From: an uncultured Candidatus Saccharibacteria bacterium
GTDB lineage: Bacteria; Patescibacteriota; Saccharimonadia; Saccharimonadales; CAZICT01
Assembly: GCA_964537935.1 (NCBI GenBank)
Contig: CAZICT010000001.1
Coordinates: 70,870 to 134,869 of the forward strand
DNA: 64,000 bases
Direction of reading: 5' to 3'
Below, piece by piece: positions 47,083-51,648 of this stretch (within the stretch, counting starts at the first letter, position 1; every line of letters begins with the position of its first letter). Under the pieces are notes generated by a model that ran no database searches, had not been told where the DNA came from, and was given only the letters and a program-made list of their open reading frames with translations. The position numbers and the translations under genes were made by a program.

Positions 47083-47101
47083 ACAATACGGTATTAATAT
47101 C

Positions 47102-47128
47102 AAAAGCTCGGACCAGTTCCGGGCTTTT
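47102..47128 (+). terminator. Rho-independent terminator after rpsI
   Basis: aaaagctcgga-ccagt-tccgggctttt. Confidence 0.7.
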
Positions 47129-47142
47129 GGTATATTTATCTA

Positions 47143-47305
47143 TTGCATAAAATGACAATGTTGATATATTACACCTTATGATAGCGAGCTTGCGGAACAA
47201 GAATTATTTTTGGTTTACCGACACCTGCCGTGGCGGTTTGTTCCGTGTGTTTGCATAAAATACCCTCGAATATATAGAAGAAACCGCCACCAAGGGCGGT
47301 TTTTT
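47143..47305 (+). promoter_or_regulatory. Promoter + leader-peptide-type transcription attenuator upstream of ORF47334-trpS
   Basis: TTGCAT-N16-TATATT. 26-aa ORF 47178-47258 with Trp codon at 47211. Mutually exclusive helices 1:2 (47217-24/47230-37), 2:3 (47230-39/47281-90, 10 bp perfect) and 3:4 terminator (47281-88/47295-302 + T-run). Confidence 0.5.
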
Positions 47306-47333: not shown

Positions 47334-47531
47334 ATGGAATTAAAAACAAGATCAATAATTGACGAGACCCATGCGCGCCAGATACTGCGCGAAAACAGGG
47401 TGACGGTTGAAGTTGAAGAAAGAGATACATACCCGCTTATAGTTCATAGGCTAGGTCATTGCGTGATAGATGGTATGGTTTGTGTCTATTGTGTAGATTA
47501 TCAGGAATCAAACACTGAGGTTGCGGTATAA
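47334..47531 (+). CDS. Hypothetical 65-aa protein translationally coupled to trpS
   Basis: Stop overlaps trpS ATG (TAATG); no family recognised. Confidence 0.4.
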   Translation: MELKTRSIIDETHARQILRENRVTVEVEERDTYPLIVHRLGHCVIDGMVCVYCVDYQESNTEVAV

Positions 47532-48571
47532 TGCAGGTAATGACCAAACCTGTGATTTTAACCGGGCTTCGCTCTAATAATGAGCTGCATGTAGGCAACT
47601 ACCTGGGCGGGTTGTTGCCGATAATTGATATGGCTAAAAACCATGCTGACGAGTGCCAGATTAACTTGTTTGTGCCGGATTTACATAGCTTTACCACACC
47701 TATTGATCACGGCCAACTGTATCAACAGACCATACATAATATTAAGTCATATGTAGCGTGTGGCTTGCCGCTTGATAACCCAGACATTCACATTTACCGC
47801 CAAAGCTATATACCGGCGCACAGTGAGCTTACCTGGATTCTTGATTGTTTTACCGGCTTTGGAGAAATGTCGAGAATGACCCAATTCAAAGATAAGTCTT
47901 CCACGCTTAGTGACGATCGTATTAGTGTCGGATTATTTAACTATCCTGTTTTAATGGCAGCCGATATCCTTTTGTACGGCGCTACATATGTGCCGGTCGG
48001 CGACGACCAAACACAACATCTGGAGTTTACACGAGATATAGCCGAGAGAATGAATAATCAATTCGGGGAACTGTTTGTTATACCAAAGCCCGTCAAAGAA
48101 CAGCATAAGCTCTTCGGTAAAGATCAAGGGCTTCGTATACGTGACCTGACAGACCCAACCAAGAAGATGAGCAAATCTGATCAAACCGGTAAAGGAGTTA
48201 TCTTCTTGAACGACAGTCCGAGTGTAGCTAAGAAAAAAATCATGAGTGCAACAACCGACAGCTACGGCCGGATTGCCTACAACCGAGCCGAACAACCTGG
48301 AATCACTAATTTAATTGACCTGCTGGCCCTTTTATCTGGAAAAGATGTAGGAAAAGTCAGCAGTGAGTACGTCGGAAGCACGGTATACGGTCCGCTGAAG
48401 CAAGCAGTCGCAGAAGCGGTGGAGGCTTTTCTAACCGATTTTCAAAATAAACTTAAAGCCGTAGATGAGAATGGCGTGCTTAAAAAGCTTGAGAAAAGCG
48501 AAGAAGCCATGCGCAAGCAAGCCAATGCGACTTTGCTTAAAGTACAAAAAGCCGTAGGTCTGCGTCCATAA
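47531..48571 (+). CDS. trpS: Tryptophan--tRNA ligase
   Basis: 346 aa; ELHVGNYLGG (HIGH-type), KMSKS motif. Confidence 0.94.
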   Translation: MQVMTKPVILTGLRSNNELHVGNYLGGLLPIIDMAKNHADECQINLFVPDLHSFTTPIDHGQLYQQTIHNIKSYVACGLPLDNPDIHIYRQSYIPAHSELTWILDCFTGFGEMSRMTQFKDKSSTLSDDRISVGLFNYPVLMAADILLYGATYVPVGDDQTQHLEFTRDIAERMNNQFGELFVIPKPVKEQHKLFGKDQGLRIRDLTDPTKKMSKSDQTGKGVIFLNDSPSVAKKKIMSATTDSYGRIAYNRAEQPGITNLIDLLALLSGKDVGKVSSEYVGSTVYGPLKQAVAEAVEAFLTDFQNKLKAVDENGVLKKLEKSEEAMRKQANATLLKVQKAVGLRP

Positions 48572-48574
48572 CTT

Positions 48575-49435
48575 ATGAAAAGTATGGTTATAAATGAAAC
48601 CAATAAAGGCAAACGTTTTGATATAGTAGCGTCCGAAATGCTTCCAGAACTCAGCCGCAGCTATGTGACTAGTCTGATATCTGCCGGGGGTATCAAGCTG
48701 TCTGACAGGATAGAAAAACCTGGTTATAAGCTGCGAGAAGGGGATGAAATAAGTATTGAAGCCGACCTTGAATCGATGCAGCAAATACCTGATATTGACC
48801 TGCCTGTGATTTACGAAGACAACGACGTGCTGGTCATTAATAAGCCGGAAGGGGTTGTTAGCCATAGTCGAGGGCGGTATTGGTATGAACCGTCTGTGGC
48901 ATCTTTTGTGCGGCAAAAAACCGGTCAAGAAGGCGATAGAGCCGGTATAGTTCATCGTTTAGATAGAGCTACTTCGGGTGTTATGGTGTGTGCTAAAAAC
49001 CAGGCTGCCATGAAGCACTTGCAACGTCAATTTTCTGACAGGTCGGTTATCAAAAAATATTCGGCTATCATCGAGGGTCATATCTCGCCTAAGGCAGCTA
49101 TCATCGATATGCCTATAGAACGCAATCCGAAGGCACCAGCTACATTCCGGGTAGGCGCCAATGGCAAGCCCGCAATAACCGAATATAAGGTACTGCGGTC
49201 AATAGGCGATTACGAGCTGGTGGAGCTTTTGCCTAAATCCGGCCGCACGCATCAGCTGCGTGTTCATATGAAGCAATTGGGTCATCCGATTGTCGGCGAT
49301 CATCTTTACGGAACCTCTGGTGAAAGGCTATATCTGCATGCTCATATGCTTGAAATCAACCTACCGAACGGGGTTCGTAAGACATTTGAAGCAAAATTAC
49401 CAAAAGAATTTCATGCTTTCATGGAGAACTATTAG
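48575..49435 (+). CDS. rluD: RluA-family 23S rRNA pseudouridine synthase (RluD-like)
   Basis: N-terminal S4 domain, HRLDRATSGVMV catalytic motif. Confidence 0.85.
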   Translation: MKSMVINETNKGKRFDIVASEMLPELSRSYVTSLISAGGIKLSDRIEKPGYKLREGDEISIEADLESMQQIPDIDLPVIYEDNDVLVINKPEGVVSHSRGRYWYEPSVASFVRQKTGQEGDRAGIVHRLDRATSGVMVCAKNQAAMKHLQRQFSDRSVIKKYSAIIEGHISPKAAIIDMPIERNPKAPATFRVGANGKPAITEYKVLRSIGDYELVELLPKSGRTHQLRVHMKQLGHPIVGDHLYGTSGERLYLHAHMLEINLPNGVRKTFEAKLPKEFHAFMENY

Positions 49436-50301
49436 TGGTTAAGCCAATTTTCAGTACCGTTACCAAATCGCATGTTGAGCGCATCATTTCCCGTCCGCCA
49501 CACGGCCTTTTACTACAAGGCGCGGACGGGGCAGGTAAGCGTTATGCAGCTCGGCAAATCGCTTATCAATTACTAGGATTAACAGCGGAAGATAAGCTTA
49601 CAAATCACCCTTATTACCTACAAATTGAACCGACTAAAGGCGTCCTTGGTATTAATGATGTGCGCTCCCTAACACGCTTTATGCAACTTAAAACCACCGG
49701 CAAAGCCGCTATCCGGCGCGTGGCTGTGGTATGTGACGCACATACAATGACAATCGAAGCGCAGAATGCTCTTCTAAAAATAATGGAAGAGCCACCCGCA
49801 GACAGCGTTATCATACTAAGCGCAGAAGGCGAGAGATCACTGCTCACAACAATTTACTCCCGCCTGCACGCAGTAAATTTACAACCCATATCTTTTGAAG
49901 AAGCTAAAGCCGTATTGCCTGACATTAACGAGCTAGAGCTAAAAAAAGCATACCTTTTAAGCGGCGGTAATGTAGGCTTGCTCTTGGCCTTACTTGATAA
50001 ATCGGTGGAGCATCCGCTGGTAGAGGCCATAGGAACAGCAAAATCATTGCTAGGCGAAACCGTATATGAACGACTTGGACGCATTGATAAGTTAGCAAAA
50101 CAAAAAGAAAGCTGTGAACTGCTGTTTGATGCTTTGAGCAGAATAGCCAGAGCGGGATTAGAACAATCTGTTTCGTCTCACAAAGCGCAACAGGTAAAGC
50201 GGTGGCATTCTATAAGACAGCAAGTATACGACGCAAAGTCTTCGTTATCTGCTAATCCGAACCTTAAGCTTTTACTGACTGACTTGTTCATGAGTCTGTA
50301 G
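49435..50301 (+). CDS. holB: DNA polymerase III subunit delta'
   Basis: GTG start overlapping rluD stop; HGLLLQGADGAGKRY P-loop-like, NALLKIMEEPP motif. Confidence 0.75.
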   Translation: MVKPIFSTVTKSHVERIISRPPHGLLLQGADGAGKRYAARQIAYQLLGLTAEDKLTNHPYYLQIEPTKGVLGINDVRSLTRFMQLKTTGKAAIRRVAVVCDAHTMTIEAQNALLKIMEEPPADSVIILSAEGERSLLTTIYSRLHAVNLQPISFEEAKAVLPDINELELKKAYLLSGGNVGLLLALLDKSVEHPLVEAIGTAKSLLGETVYERLGRIDKLAKQKESCELLFDALSRIARAGLEQSVSSHKAQQVKRWHSIRQQVYDAKSSLSANPNLKLLLTDLFMSL

Positions 50302-51041: not shown

Positions 51042-51118
51042 GCCACCTTAGCTCAGCTGGTTAGAGCGGCGGTTTTGTAAACCGTAGGTCGTCGGTTCGA
51101 ATCCGACAGGTGGCTCCA
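51042..51118 (+). tRNA. tRNA-Thr (anticodon TGT), CCA encoded
   Basis: Acceptor GCCACCT/AGGTGGC, anticodon loop TTTGTAA, T-loop TTCGAAT. Confidence 0.92.
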
Positions 51119-51119
51119 T

Positions 51120-51148
51120 AATTAGCTTATAGCTATCAGCTAATAGCT
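51120..51148 (+). repeat. AGCT heptad array (AGCTnnn x4); 22/24 match to 63680-63703
   Basis: AGCT at 51124, 51131, 51138, 51145 (exact 7-nt period). Confidence 0.8.
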
Positions 51149-51161
51149 CATAGATAAATGT

Positions 51162-51247
51162 GCAGGGATAGTGAAGCGGTCAAACACGGCAGACTGTAAA
51201 TCTGCTGGCATTCGCCTTCGGGGGTTCGAATCCCTCTCCCTGCACCA
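51162..51247 (+). tRNA. tRNA-Tyr (anticodon GTA), long variable arm, CCA encoded
   Basis: Acceptor GCAGGGA/TCCCTGC, anticodon loop ACTGTAAATC context, T-loop TTCGAAT. Confidence 0.9.
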
Positions 51248-51249
51248 TG

Positions 51250-51284
51250 CTAAAATAGCTCACCTTCATGGTGGGCTGTTTTAG
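51250..51284 (+). terminator. Hairpin after tRNA-Tyr (terminator-like)
   Basis: ctaaaa-tagctcacc-ttca-tggtgggctg-ttttag then tttctg. Confidence 0.45.
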
Positions 51285-51311
51285 TTTCTGTAACCGGGTA
51301 GGGATTCGAAC

Positions 51312-51332
51312 GGGTTTGCCAGTGGCAAACCC
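51312..51332 (+). other. Hairpin A: 8-bp stem, AGT loop (apex TGCC-AGT-GGCA)
   Basis: ggtttgcc-agt-ggcaaacc; covaries with hairpin B at 51675-51693. Confidence 0.7.
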
Positions 51333-51363
51333 CGGCACTTTTGGAGATTCATCGACAAAAGCG

Positions 51364-51381
51364 ATCCCTCTCCCTGCACCA
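51364..51381 (+). repeat. 18-nt exact duplicate of the tRNA-Tyr 3' end (atccctctccctgcacca = 51230-51247)
   Basis: Direct repeat 116 nt downstream of the genuine 3' end. Confidence 0.9.
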
Positions 51382-51419
51382 AACTAAGGGTCGGGCCATG
51401 AGCCCGGCTTTTAGTTTGG
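51379..51419 (+). terminator. Long hairpin after the duplicated tRNA-Tyr 3' end
   Basis: ccaaactaa-gggtcgggc-catg-agcccggctt-ttagtttgg. Confidence 0.45.
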
Positions 51420-51486
51420 TTACCCATAATCAATGTAGATAAGTTTTTAAATTATCTTATAAAAGTACTGATTACGTTAAGGGCGG

Positions 51487-51515
51487 TTTAAAATTAGGTT
51501 GATATCTGTTAAAAT
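51487..51515 (+). promoter_or_regulatory. Promoter upstream of the tRNA-Thr(GGT) unit
   Basis: TTTAAA-N17-TAAAAT with extended -10 (cTGtTAAAAT). Confidence 0.5.
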
Positions 51516-51529
51516 CTGGTAGTTGTTAC

Positions 51530-51557
51530 ACCATCTTAGCTCAGGGGTAGAGCACCT
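51530..51557 (+). pseudogene. 5' tRNA fragment (acceptor strand ACCATCT + D-arm + start of anticodon stem)
   Basis: 51537-51557 is 21/21 identical to 51581-51601 of tRNA-Thr(GGT); diverges after cacct. Confidence 0.6.
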
Positions 51558-51573
51558 AGTACATTTTCATTAT

Positions 51574-51648
51574 GCCGTTGTAGCTCAGGGGTAGAGCACC
51601 TCCATGGTAAGGAGGGGGTCACGAGTTCAAATCTCGTCAACGGCTCCA
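51574..51648 (+). tRNA. tRNA-Thr (anticodon GGT), CCA encoded
   Basis: Acceptor GCCGTTG/CAACGGC, anticodon stem-loop cctcc-atggtaa-ggagg, T-loop TTCAAAT. Confidence 0.92.

Follow-up and report, generated by a model that had tools for sequence, protein, structure and literature searches.

In the trpL leader of Escherichia coli, Trp codons lie just 5' of segment 1 within a short ORF, the RNA pairs exclusively as 1:2, 2:3 or 3:4, an intrinsic terminator precedes the first structural gene, and a stalled ribosome frees segment 2. Aminoacyl-tRNA synthetase genes may be controlled in a comparable way: attenuators were predicted upstream of trpS and leuS in Streptomyces, which gives a precedent for attenuators of trpS and pheST (PMC1262725). 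In Actinobacteria some leader peptides are themselves leaderless, e.g., those of the Corynebacterium diphtheriae ilvB leader (PMC5784534) and of the mycobacterial polycysteine short ORFs (bioRxiv 10.1101/834739). There, a sensory ORF begins at the transcription start and stalling on cognate codons controls the operon. Two further systems respond to amino acids by other means. T-box riboswitches comprise a Stem I with a specifier loop, the T-box sequence, and an antiterminator bulge that pairs with the NCCA end of the tRNA. TnaC carries the residues W...D...P at fixed spacing, and its Pro is the last codon before the stop.

Here, we describe a leader upstream of trpS in a Saccharibacteria bacterium. 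It was detected in a window (the whole stretch of DNA that was analysed) of 64,000 nucleotides. The leader has the anatomy and the alternative folds of an attenuator, and both are conserved in relatives. We are fairly confident, from sequence and predicted structure, that it is a ribosome-mediated (leader-peptide) transcription attenuator, which would tune read-through to the supply of charged tRNA-Trp. The full-text literature that we searched contains no published description of an amino-acid-sensing attenuator in Saccharibacteria.

The leader resembles trpL in all the traits listed above, the freeing of segment 2 by a stalled ribosome being predicted. Yet it matches trpL neither in sequence nor by covariance model, and has one Trp codon instead of two. 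Its ORF is predicted to lie at the 5' end of the transcript and lacks a Shine-Dalgarno sequence. Its stop codon is 3' of segment 2, whereas that of trpL precedes segment 2, and the operon that it would control encodes a tRNA synthetase, not enzymes of Trp biosynthesis. With pheM/pheST of E. coli and with trpS and leuS of Streptomyces it would share leader-peptide attenuation of a synthetase gene through a leader with cognate codons. The differences are the phylum (Patescibacteria/CPR), the unrelated sequence, the frequent presence of DAHP synthase in the Trp-type operons, and the use of a single RNA scaffold that would serve Trp, Phe and probably Tyr by codon exchange.

Anatomy of the trpS leader

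The features of the locus, in window coordinates, are the following:

47097-47133, + strand: intrinsic terminator of the rpsI (S9) operon, an inverted repeat with a 16-pair stem and then a T-rich tail
47143-47170, + strand: promoter, with -35 TTGCAT (47143-48), a 16-nt spacer and -10 TATATT (47165-70)
47178-47258, + strand: leader ORF of 26 codons plus TAA, MIASLRNKNYFWFTDTCRGGLFRVFA (sequence read and ORF translation)
47184-47254, + strand: 5' domain (anti-antiterminator; minimum-energy fold and inverted repeat)
47211-47213, + strand: TGG, the only Trp codon of the ORF and its predicted regulatory (stall) position (sequence read)
47217-47224, + strand: segment 1, ACCGACAC (sequence and minimum-energy fold)
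47230-47243, + strand: segment 2, GTGGCGGTTTGTTC, partner of either segment 1 or segment 3 (inverted repeat and folds)
47277-47290, + strand: segment 3, GAAGAAACCGCCAC, a shared arm, 3' in the antiterminator and 5' in the terminator (inverted repeats)
47295-47305, + strand: segment 4, GGCGGTTT, running into a T6 run and forming the intrinsic terminator with segment 3 (sequence, fold and inverted repeat)
47334-47531, + strand: ORF47334, an orphan of 65 aa and the first gene past the attenuator (ORF translation)
47531-48571, + strand: trpS, tryptophanyl-tRNA synthetase, the proposed regulated gene (PF00579, E = 6.6e-60)
48575-49435, + strand: rluD-like gene, after trpS
49435-50301, + strand: holB, after the rluD-like gene

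The rpsI terminator is the upstream boundary of the attenuator element. An earlier note on this DNA had described a promoter TTGCAT-N16-TATATT after this terminator, and we read both hexamers where it had placed them. A consensus promoter scan of the window did not list the leader promoter, because TTGCAT agrees with the consensus TTGACA at only three of six positions. The ATG at 47178 lies 7 nt past the -10 and has no Shine-Dalgarno sequence, again as first described, and the transcript is therefore predicted to be leaderless. The 26-codon ORF with one TGG at 47211-13 was also found as claimed. This codon is flanked by Phe codons and has a Tyr codon two codons upstream. Classical trp leaders have two or three Trp codons, and this one has a single Trp codon. 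The stop codon (47256-58) is 3' of segment 2, so that an unstalled ribosome would cover segment 2 in passing and not, as in trpL, while parked at the stop. A ribosome stalled at the TGG, whose last base is 47213, is predicted to cover about 12-15 nt beyond its A site on the 3' side; this takes in segment 1 but stops short of segment 2, whose first base is 47230.

The 5' domain consists of an outer helix (47184-47200/47238-47254), a weak hairpin (47201-16) and the segment 1:2 hairpin (47217-37). Segment 1 begins 4 nt past the Trp codon, within the predicted footprint of a ribosome stalled there. The three alternative pairings that had been proposed were all recovered. The fold pairs ACCGACAC of segment 1 with GTGGCGGT of segment 2 (47230-37) by 7 bp and one A/G mismatch, and the terminator forms between 47278-88 and 47295-305, with the T-run at its end. 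The pairing of segments 2 and 3 is also present, but its size had to be corrected, from 10 bp to 14 nt at 93% complementarity (47230-43/47277-90). A strain SNP in segment 3, A47283G, keeps both the 2:3 and the 3:4 pairing as G.U.

The full leader has a folding energy of -44.2 kcal/mol, whereas its dinucleotide shuffles are at -29.4 +/- 3.2 (z = -4.59); none of the 200 was as stable. When the leader is cut before segment 4, the minimum-energy fold moves to the 2:3 helix (z = -3.5). We used this truncated fold, which mimics the co-transcriptional order, in place of the full-length equilibrium fold; full-length equilibrium folds with ribosome masks gave mixed terminator and antiterminator outcomes. 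When a ribosome is placed on the stop codon in the model, the leader of the window still has the antiterminator as its minimum-energy fold. We also considered a third hairpin, AACCA/UGGUU, in which a CCA further 5' would pair with the UGG, and rejected it, as it was no better than in shuffled sequence (mean z = -0.4).

Recovery of homologous leaders

Saccharibacteria MAGs and metagenomes yielded 31 homologues of the leader, and with the one in the window the family numbers 32. The stop codon of ORF47334 overlaps the start of trpS (TAATG). This ORF gave no handle for retrieving relatives: it has no Pfam match, and a homologue search returned ORF47334 itself alone. We scanned metagenomes with a DNA pattern that put no constraint on the ATG or the TGG, on the stop codon, or on segment 4, which makes up the 3' half of the terminator. 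This pattern retrieved 22 true leaders, making 24 with the window and L001. A covariance model added two leaders in L085, one in L087, the second copy in L118, one each in L208 and L209, and two in L210. Of the two in L210, the Trp-type match is strong and lies on the minus strand, and the Phe-type match is weak and divergent. Protein homology alone had led to L085, L087 and L208-L210, so that nothing was required of their leader sequences. In a scan of genome contigs with a TrpRS alignment the universal TrpRS motifs dominated, and Saccharibacteria made up 6 of the 80 returned loci. In the closest TrpRS relatives (P0006/L085 and P0004/L087), trpS directly follows other genes; it belongs to a longer operon there, and the leader lies upstream of these genes, where that operon begins. 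The attenuator element was not found in the Nanosynbacter loci examined.

Conservation of the start, the frame and the predicted regulatory codon

The earlier note had made its reading depend on conservation of the leader ORF and its Trp codon in relatives, and across the 31 homologues this conservation was found. Most of the 32 leaders have a TAnnnT -10 with a -35-like hexamer 16-18 nt upstream, which in relatives is often TTGACA, and otherwise TTGCAT, TTGCCA or similar. The 11-nt direct repeat ttgcataaaat pointed out previously does exist in the window, but it is not conserved in relatives and has no evident role; since the -35 differs in relatives, we take it as coincidence. The distance from the -10 to the ATG is 6-8 nt in 24 of the 32 leaders and at most 10 nt in all 32, and a Shine-Dalgarno sequence was found in none of them. 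The ATG and the TGG share a frame in 26 of the 27 Trp-type leaders, L132 being the exception; the distances between them are 24, 27, 30, 33 or 36 nt, which correspond to five ORF lengths. Past the regulatory codon, the loop between segments 1 and 2 varies by 3-6 nt and the distal peptide lies in three different frames. Indels 3' of the Trp codon are not multiples of three, so that the frame is kept only up to the regulatory codon. The in-frame stop codon of the homologues is always 3' of the 5' domain.

Twenty-seven family members retain the Trp codon, among them those of L085, L087 and L210, found without the DNA pattern. At its position four copies have Phe codons and one has a Tyr codon. 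The spacing between this codon and segment 1 is the same in nearly all homologues (TGG TTT ACCG). Changes in the peptide around Trp, NNQYWFT[D/G]T, are partly synonymous (AAC/AAT, CAG/CAA, TAT/TAC). We tested the 5' half of the leader ORF for three-base periodicity of conservation and found none, so that the coding signature comes down to where the ORF starts, its frame and how long the indels are. Judging by the -10 spacing, the frame and the length classes, the leader ORF may be translated from a 5' AUG. The likeness to actinobacterial leaderless leaders has two limits: the leaderless start in Saccharibacteria is deduced from the spacing between the -10 and the ATG, and the mycobacterial Cys elements unmask a ribosome-binding site, i.e., act on translation, whereas the Saccharibacteria element has a canonical intrinsic terminator and an antiterminator.

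The predicted stall-site codon changes with the downstream operon

The leader always heads an operon on the same strand, and its aromatic codon matches the gene content wherever the downstream genes are identifiable; the first genes after several leaders gave no match in Pfam scans. Trp-type copies head trpS operons, often with DAHP synthase, and trpS is found within about 1.1 kb downstream of 18 of them. In L094, L208 and L209, AlaX-pheS(-HIT)-pheT operons are headed by leaders that lack Trp and carry F-F-F or F-F at its position. These Phe-type copies would be a direct functional parallel of pheM. The divergent Phe-type leader in L210 heads a prephenate dehydratase gene. The three codons at the predicted stall site are Y-W-F in most Trp-type leaders, F-F-F in the Phe-type and F-Y-F in one copy. 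Two loci, L085 and L118, carry tandem leader copies within one operon.

Conservation of the alternative structures

In the 24 leaders that we folded, a ribosome mask reaching to 15 nt past the Trp codon, combined with a transcript cut before segment 4, always resulted in pairing of segments 2 and 3. The terminator hairpin ranged from -8 to -18 kcal/mol in the 24 homologues tested. Paired cells in the alignment amounted to 81.6% for the antiterminator (35-58% when slid), 87% both for the segment 1:2 helix and for this helix plus the terminator (31-50% when slid), and 86.7% for the terminator. Seven pairs of the antiterminator, and six of the segment 1:2 helix and the terminator, had both sides changed, a result obtained in none of 500 shuffles in either case. 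The search pattern fixed the cores of segments 1, 2 and 3 in 24 of the 28 aligned sequences, which left less covariation that could show. In the second leader of L085, segments 2, 3 and 4 are altered together (GTAGCGG / CCGCTAC / AGCGGAT).

The outer helix CGGAACAA/TTGTTCCG, which the earlier note had mentioned, was confirmed in the window (duplex z = -5.2) but is strong in only about half of the homologues: z is below -2 in 12 of 24, and the helix is weak or absent in several. Its sequences differ (CGGAAC/GTTCCG, CAGAAC/GTTCTG, ACAGC.AAAC/GTTT.GCTGT and others). RNAalifold on a MAFFT alignment yielded no helices beyond the invariant ones, since the alignment misplaced the outer helix on its 5' strand.

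Free RNA cut before segment 4 already favours the 2:3 helix in 17 of the 24 homologues. Hence, the switch must be kinetic, and basal read-through could be high.

Proposed mechanism

The first transcribed base would be the A of the start codon at 47178, or one no more than two bases away, and a ribosome would load on this 5' AUG with no Shine-Dalgarno sequence to guide it. Under a shortage of Trp-tRNA, it would stall with the UGG (47211-13) in its A site, covering segment 1 and leaving segment 2 (47230-43) free. The freed segment 2 could then pair with segment 3 (47277-90) as this emerges, no terminator would form, and RNA polymerase would continue into trpS. Read-through from the leader's own promoter would in this way feed ORF47334-trpS-rluD-holB. 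When Trp-tRNA is plentiful, the ribosome would pass segments 1 and 2 and reach the stop codon at 47256-58. Segment 2 would by then be within the ribosome or re-paired with segment 1, the 3:4 helix would form, and transcription would end at about 47305. If translation is absent, the 5' domain is expected to fold and the terminator to form. The attenuator reading of the earlier note finds support in the conserved ATG, the frame, the alternative pairings, and the switch from Trp to Phe codons with the operon.

Alternative explanations

The same elements could in principle sense tRNA without translation, as a T-box does: the CCA anticodon of uncharged tRNA-Trp would pair with the UGG and stabilise the 2:3 helix, the ATG being incidental. 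The triplet does track the synthetase (UGG with trpS, UUC/UUU with pheS), as a specifier codon would, and the nucleotides around it (UAUUGGUUUACCG) are strongly conserved. The trpS T-boxes of Firmicutes act on the same gene, also choosing between terminator and antiterminator on tRNA-Trp charging by means of an amino-acid-specific triplet. Yet the Saccharibacteria leader has neither the T-box sequence nor any Rfam match. At gathering thresholds, Rfam matched only tRNAs in the whole window, with no Trp, Phe or Thr leader and no T-box. The best scores in the leader region were below threshold and fell on the terminator hairpin (Phe_leader 23 vs 55 bits, on the wrong strand; STnc370 30 vs 54), and a search of 801 nt gave no match to the Rfam T-box (RF00230) even at E <= 10. 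The leader is only about 125 nt long, with no Stem I or specifier-loop architecture, and the 2:3 helix of the window is a continuous 14-nt duplex with one mismatch, lacking a 7-nt UGGN bulge for the tRNA acceptor end. Tuning by uncharged tRNA alone would also leave unexplained why an ATG lies 6-10 nt past the -10 in all 32 copies, why indels between ATG and triplet are all multiples of three when those downstream are not, and why the in-frame stop always follows the 5' domain. We therefore regard it as very unlikely; the evidence points to read-out by a translating ribosome rather than by a T-box RNA. A ribosome could also be arrested in the manner of TnaC, with the peptide N-N-Q-Y-W-F-T stalling it on free tryptophan or another ligand instead of on a lack of charged tRNA. 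NNQYWFT[D/G]T is indeed more conserved than is usual for classical leader peptides, with several changes synonymous, and TnaC likewise depends on a single Trp and then a Phe. We give this reading very little credence: conservation in the ORF shows no three-base periodicity, and the residues past W-F-T vary, as D and G alternate and the remaining peptide lies in three frames. There is no conserved Pro before the stop, and the spacing from Trp to stop is variable. Three leaders, L141 (SWQ), L118 (AWW) and L085b (AWY), lose the motif yet retain Trp, whereas the Phe-type and Tyr-type copies swap Trp itself yet retain the RNA. Stalling at high Trp would moreover raise trpS and DAHP synthase when Trp is abundant, which is the wrong logic.

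Conditional control might be lacking altogether, the unit being an independent transcript of 150 nt (an sRNA or a micro-protein gene) with a constitutive terminator, and trpS being expressed by read-through or from another promoter. The unit does have a complete promoter and a strong terminator, and within ORF47334 there is a weak promoter-like match (47359-86). In other bacteria, RNAs derived from attenuators, and leader peptides too, can act in trans, as is reported for rnTrpL and peTrpL of Sinorhizobium meliloti (PMC6614838, PMC7298713); such a role could add to control in cis but would not replace it. Segment 2, however, amounts to a conserved second copy of the terminator's 3' arm, placed upstream, for which a constitutive terminator would have no need, and this copy is maintained by co-ordinated changes in segments 2, 3 and 4. 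Nor would such a terminator account for the match of operon content to the aromatic codon, with trpS and DAHP synthase on the one hand and pheST and prephenate dehydratase on the other. An unregulated transcript is in our view highly improbable.

Implications for Saccharibacteria

Under the ribosome-mediated attenuator that we favour, the leader represents a new RNA family for which Rfam has no model. A covariance model could annotate it in metagenomes and help to define operons. The scaffold stays the same while its codon (W, F or Y) varies with the gene downstream, which makes the family a natural experiment. The leader also suggests that leaderless attenuators occur outside Actinobacteria and that initiation at a 5' AUG is in use in Saccharibacteria.

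Saccharibacteria are regarded as epibionts that depend on their hosts for amino acids. A bolder view, which we put forward tentatively and consider rather unlikely, is that a modular attenuator scaffold, retargeted by codon swaps, acts as a general sensor of host-supplied aromatic amino acids. If so, the three stall-site codons would set the specificity, and the flanking Tyr and Phe codons would make the Trp-type leaders respond to all three aromatic amino acids. This would fit the frequent joint control of DAHP synthase and trpS, and the tandem copies in L085 and L118 would permit combinatorial control. Independently of this broader view, a conserved trpS/pheST attenuator would suggest that Saccharibacteria gauge tRNA charging through their own ribosomes. 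The synthetase, and in relatives DAHP synthase and prephenate dehydratase, would then be adjusted to the amino-acid supply.

Anatomy of the trpS leader

The window belongs to a Saccharibacteria (TM7) genome, and its best TrpRS matches are named Candidatus Saccharibacteria or Saccharimonadales. The leader sits between an upstream ribosomal-protein/rpoA block and the downstream trpS operon.

Surroundings of the leader (window coordinates)
Up to 47082 (rpsI end): upstream block rpsK-rpsD-rpoA-rplQ-rplM-rpsI
47097-47133: rpsI's own terminator
47334-47531: 65-aa ORF (ORF47334), first gene after the attenuator
47531-48571: trpS, followed by an rluD-like gene and then holB

The stop codon of the 65-aa ORF overlaps the trpS start (TAATG). 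A search of 5.8 billion proteins gave no homologue of this ORF, and it has no Pfam domain. Directly behind the leader, each lineage of relatives has a different gene, usually likewise an orphan. Three tRNA genes are clustered at 51042-51645, 3' of the TPR gene that follows holB (Rfam scan), with no evident link to the attenuator.

The earlier note had proposed a leaderless Trp leader peptide and an attenuator with alternative helices. The promoter (TTGCAT-N16-TATATT) lies where it had been placed, followed 7 nt past the -10 by an ATG without a Shine-Dalgarno sequence, which opens an ORF of 26 codons with a sole TGG at 47211-13. The outer helix (47184-47200 with 47238-47254) and the terminator (47278-88 with 47295-305, into T6) were also found. 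Segment 1 (47217-24) does pair with segment 2, over 7 bp with one mismatch, and the antiterminator formed by segments 2 and 3 is longer than claimed, spanning 14 nt with 93% complementarity (47230-43 with 47277-90). The 11-nt direct repeat TTGCATAAAAT (47143-47153 and 47251-47261) is real and its role doubtful: the first copy is the -35 region, unconserved among relatives, the second closes the leader ORF (GCA TAA), and the repeat is probably a coincidence.

The predicted fold, a three-way 5' domain plus the terminator, is more stable than that of shuffled sequences (-44.2 vs -29.4 +/- 3.2 kcal/mol, z = -4.6). Truncation before segment 4 shifts the minimum-energy fold to the 2:3 helix. The leader matched no Rfam family, T-box and leader families included, and gave only sub-threshold matches to its terminator hairpin. 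A candidate hairpin between the UGG and a CCA 5' of it was no better than chance.

A family of leaders in Saccharibacteria

Loci from relatives (MAGs and metagenome contigs of Saccharibacteria) are denoted by L-numbers. Two near-identical strains carry the same leader with one SNP (A47283G), which leaves both the 2:3 and the 3:4 pairings intact as G.U. In L001, a Saccharimonadales MAG whose TrpRS is 67% identical, the layout after rpsI is the same (TTGACA-N17-TATATT, 7 nt, ATG) and the ORF, MSTSQNNQYWFTGTTRGGRFCVSA, has the same GCATAA end; its outer helix shows a compensatory change from CGGAAC/GTTCCG to CAGAAC/GTTCTG. We then scanned metagenome contigs with a pattern that fixed segments 1 and 2 together with six bases of segment 3; it placed no constraint on the ATG, TGG, stop codon or segment 4. 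After removal of GC-rich chance matches, 22 true leaders remained, which the window and L001 bring to 24. A covariance model trained on these identified two leaders in L085 and one in L087 (loci obtained through TrpRS identity alone), a second copy in L118, and leaders in L208, L209 and L210 (loci obtained through an AlaX-like protein), for a family total of 32. The model detected no further copy in the 64-kb window, and no leader at the trpS loci L002 and L004 (Nanosynbacter) or L003, L005 and L006 (other Saccharibacteria); L003 and L005 have only a terminator and an ordinary promoter after rpsI. Within the phylum the attenuator thus has a patchy distribution, with an apparent absence from the cultivated Nanosynbacter lineage.

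Start position and reading frame

In 24 of the 32 leaders a TAnnnT -10 element precedes the ATG by 6-8 nt (maximum over all leaders, 10 nt); most leaders have a -35-like hexamer 16-18 nt further 5', and none has a Shine-Dalgarno sequence. Across the family, the predicted leaderless arrangement is thus conserved. A TTGACA-like hexamer also occurs only 6-7 nt 5' of the -10 in the window (47153-47158, ATGACA), and at the same place in L001, L085, L118, L132 and L142. Most members with this hexamer also have a normally spaced -35, which is not evident in the first leader of L085 and the second of L118; the hexamer may serve as an operator or as an alternative promoter.

ATG and TGG share a reading frame in 26 of the 27 Trp-type leaders, at distances of 24, 27, 30, 33 or 36 nt, all multiples of three. 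The sole family member out of frame is L132 (29 nt; reverse-complement coordinates 1815-1940), which may be a decayed copy or carry a single-base misassembly in an A-run. Past the regulatory codon, the 1:2 hairpin has a loop of 3 to 6 nt depending on the leader, and the remainder of the peptide is read in three frames (...RGGxFxVxA, ...VAVCSVRS, ...SSWRYVCMFA). Thus, the frame is kept exactly to the sensing codon and not beyond, as would be expected for attenuation. Nucleotides 3' of this codon are conserved for RNA pairing rather than for protein. No three-base periodicity of conservation is seen in the 5' half of the ORF, as fits a leader peptide of unimportant sequence.

Conservation of the RNA switch

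A stalled ribosome was mimicked by masking all bases between the 5' end and a point 15 nt downstream of the regulatory codon's first base, with the transcript ending before segment 4. In this setting 24 out of 24 leaders formed the pairing of segment 3 with segment 2. The terminator hairpin is present in all 24, with energies from -8 to -18 kcal/mol. Pairing statistics were computed on a model-based alignment of 28 sequences with slid and shuffled controls. The search pattern preset the helix cores in 24 of these 28, and the counts therefore mainly reflect helix extensions and the four pattern-independent sequences: for the antiterminator, 81.6% of cells were paired (slid, 35-58%) and 7 pairs had changed on both sides; for the 1:2 helix plus terminator, 87.0% (slid, 31-50%) and 6 pairs. 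None of 500 shuffles reached this number of changed pairs in either case. The clearest covariation is the concerted change of segments 2, 3 and 4 in the second leader of L085. The outer helix differs in sequence by lineage; it reaches z < -2 in half of the leaders (12 of 24) and is weak in several. The comparison among relatives suggested in the earlier note hence shows the Trp codon kept in 27 family members, and alternative pairings above both controls.

The codon at the predicted stall site matches the downstream genes

In 18 Trp-type leaders trpS lies within about 1.1 kb downstream. Intervening genes are frequent and vary by lineage; they include small orphan ORFs and, in L085 and L112, an Asp/Glu racemase. 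In four loci a DAHP synthase (PF00793) stands at the start of the operon after a Trp-type leader, with trpS later.

Loci with a DAHP synthase after a Trp-type leader
L087, 449-1552
L103, 3989-5072
L146, 1301-2554
L153, 3725-4684 (reverse-complement coordinates)

It is worth noting that this entry enzyme of the shikimate pathway is under predicted Trp-codon control in Saccharibacteria. In some leaders Trp is kept and its neighbours are changed: A-W-W (L118), S-W-Q (L141) and A-W-Y (second leader of L085). Others have the same RNA scaffold with F-F-F or L-F-F and no Trp, and all three of these head AlaX-pheS(-HIT)-pheT operons.

Leaders with Phe codons
L094, 469-589: Phe-type, before AlaX-like-pheS(-HIT)-pheT
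L208, 1950-2064: Phe-type, before AlaX-like-pheS(-HIT)-pheT
L209, 2124-2236: Phe-type, before AlaX-like-pheS(-HIT)-pheT
L210, 1355-1475: divergent F-F leader, before prephenate dehydratase-AlaX

In the divergent L210 leader the segments have changed jointly to GGAGGC / GCCTCC / GGAGG. Two gene clusters carry paired leaders in series, L085 (292-406 and 788-927) and L118 (3400-3523 and 5043-5169). The second leader of L085 is internal, beginning 2 nt past the stop codon of the preceding ORF. In L118 the predicted stall site is F-Y-F (Tyr) in the first copy, followed by genes without assigned function, and W-W in the second.

Proposed mechanism and alternatives

Classical ribosome-mediated attenuation is the best-supported explanation. 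A ribosome stalled at the UGG would cover segment 1 and leave segment 2 free to form the 2:3 helix, allowing read-through into ORF47334-trpS-rluD-holB. Under unimpeded translation the ribosome would cross segment 2 and reach the stop codon (47256-58), so that 3:4 would form and transcription would stop near 47305; with no translation, the 5' domain would fold and the terminator form. Equilibrium folding separates the terminator and antiterminator states poorly, and the decision would therefore have to be kinetic. We infer the transcription start, the translation of the leader, the stalling and the response to Trp.

A T-box-like tRNA sensor would equally account for the match between codon and genes, but the leader showed no match to the Rfam T-box model and no bulge in the 2:3 helix. 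Such a sensor does not explain the start-codon evidence or the frame pattern, and the latter would not be explained by a ligand-binding RNA either. An arrest peptide resembling TnaC is not supported: its regulatory logic would run in reverse, the motif residues are unconserved and the stop codon has no Pro before it. An sRNA or micro-protein gene standing alone, for its part, accounts neither for the conservation of segment 2 nor for the agreement between leader codon and downstream operon content.

The proposed mechanism is that of trpL and pheM of E. coli, and of the classical attenuators predicted in Streptomyces ahead of trpS and leuS (PMC1262725). Unlike in trpL, the stop codon lies past segment 2, so this segment would be occluded by a passing ribosome and not by one parked at the stop. 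Actinobacteria provide known cases of leaderless leader peptides (PMC5784534; bioRxiv 10.1101/834739). By sequence, the leader belongs to no Rfam leader family, and a full-text literature search returned no description of an attenuator in Saccharibacteria. Several traits of the family are unusual: on sequence grounds, a single sensing codon, a conserved, predicted leaderless start, and one scaffold reused for Trp and Phe and probably for Tyr; and tandem copies in some operons. While it involves no new principle, the leader is a well-supported and experimentally testable regulatory element of a poorly understood bacterial group.
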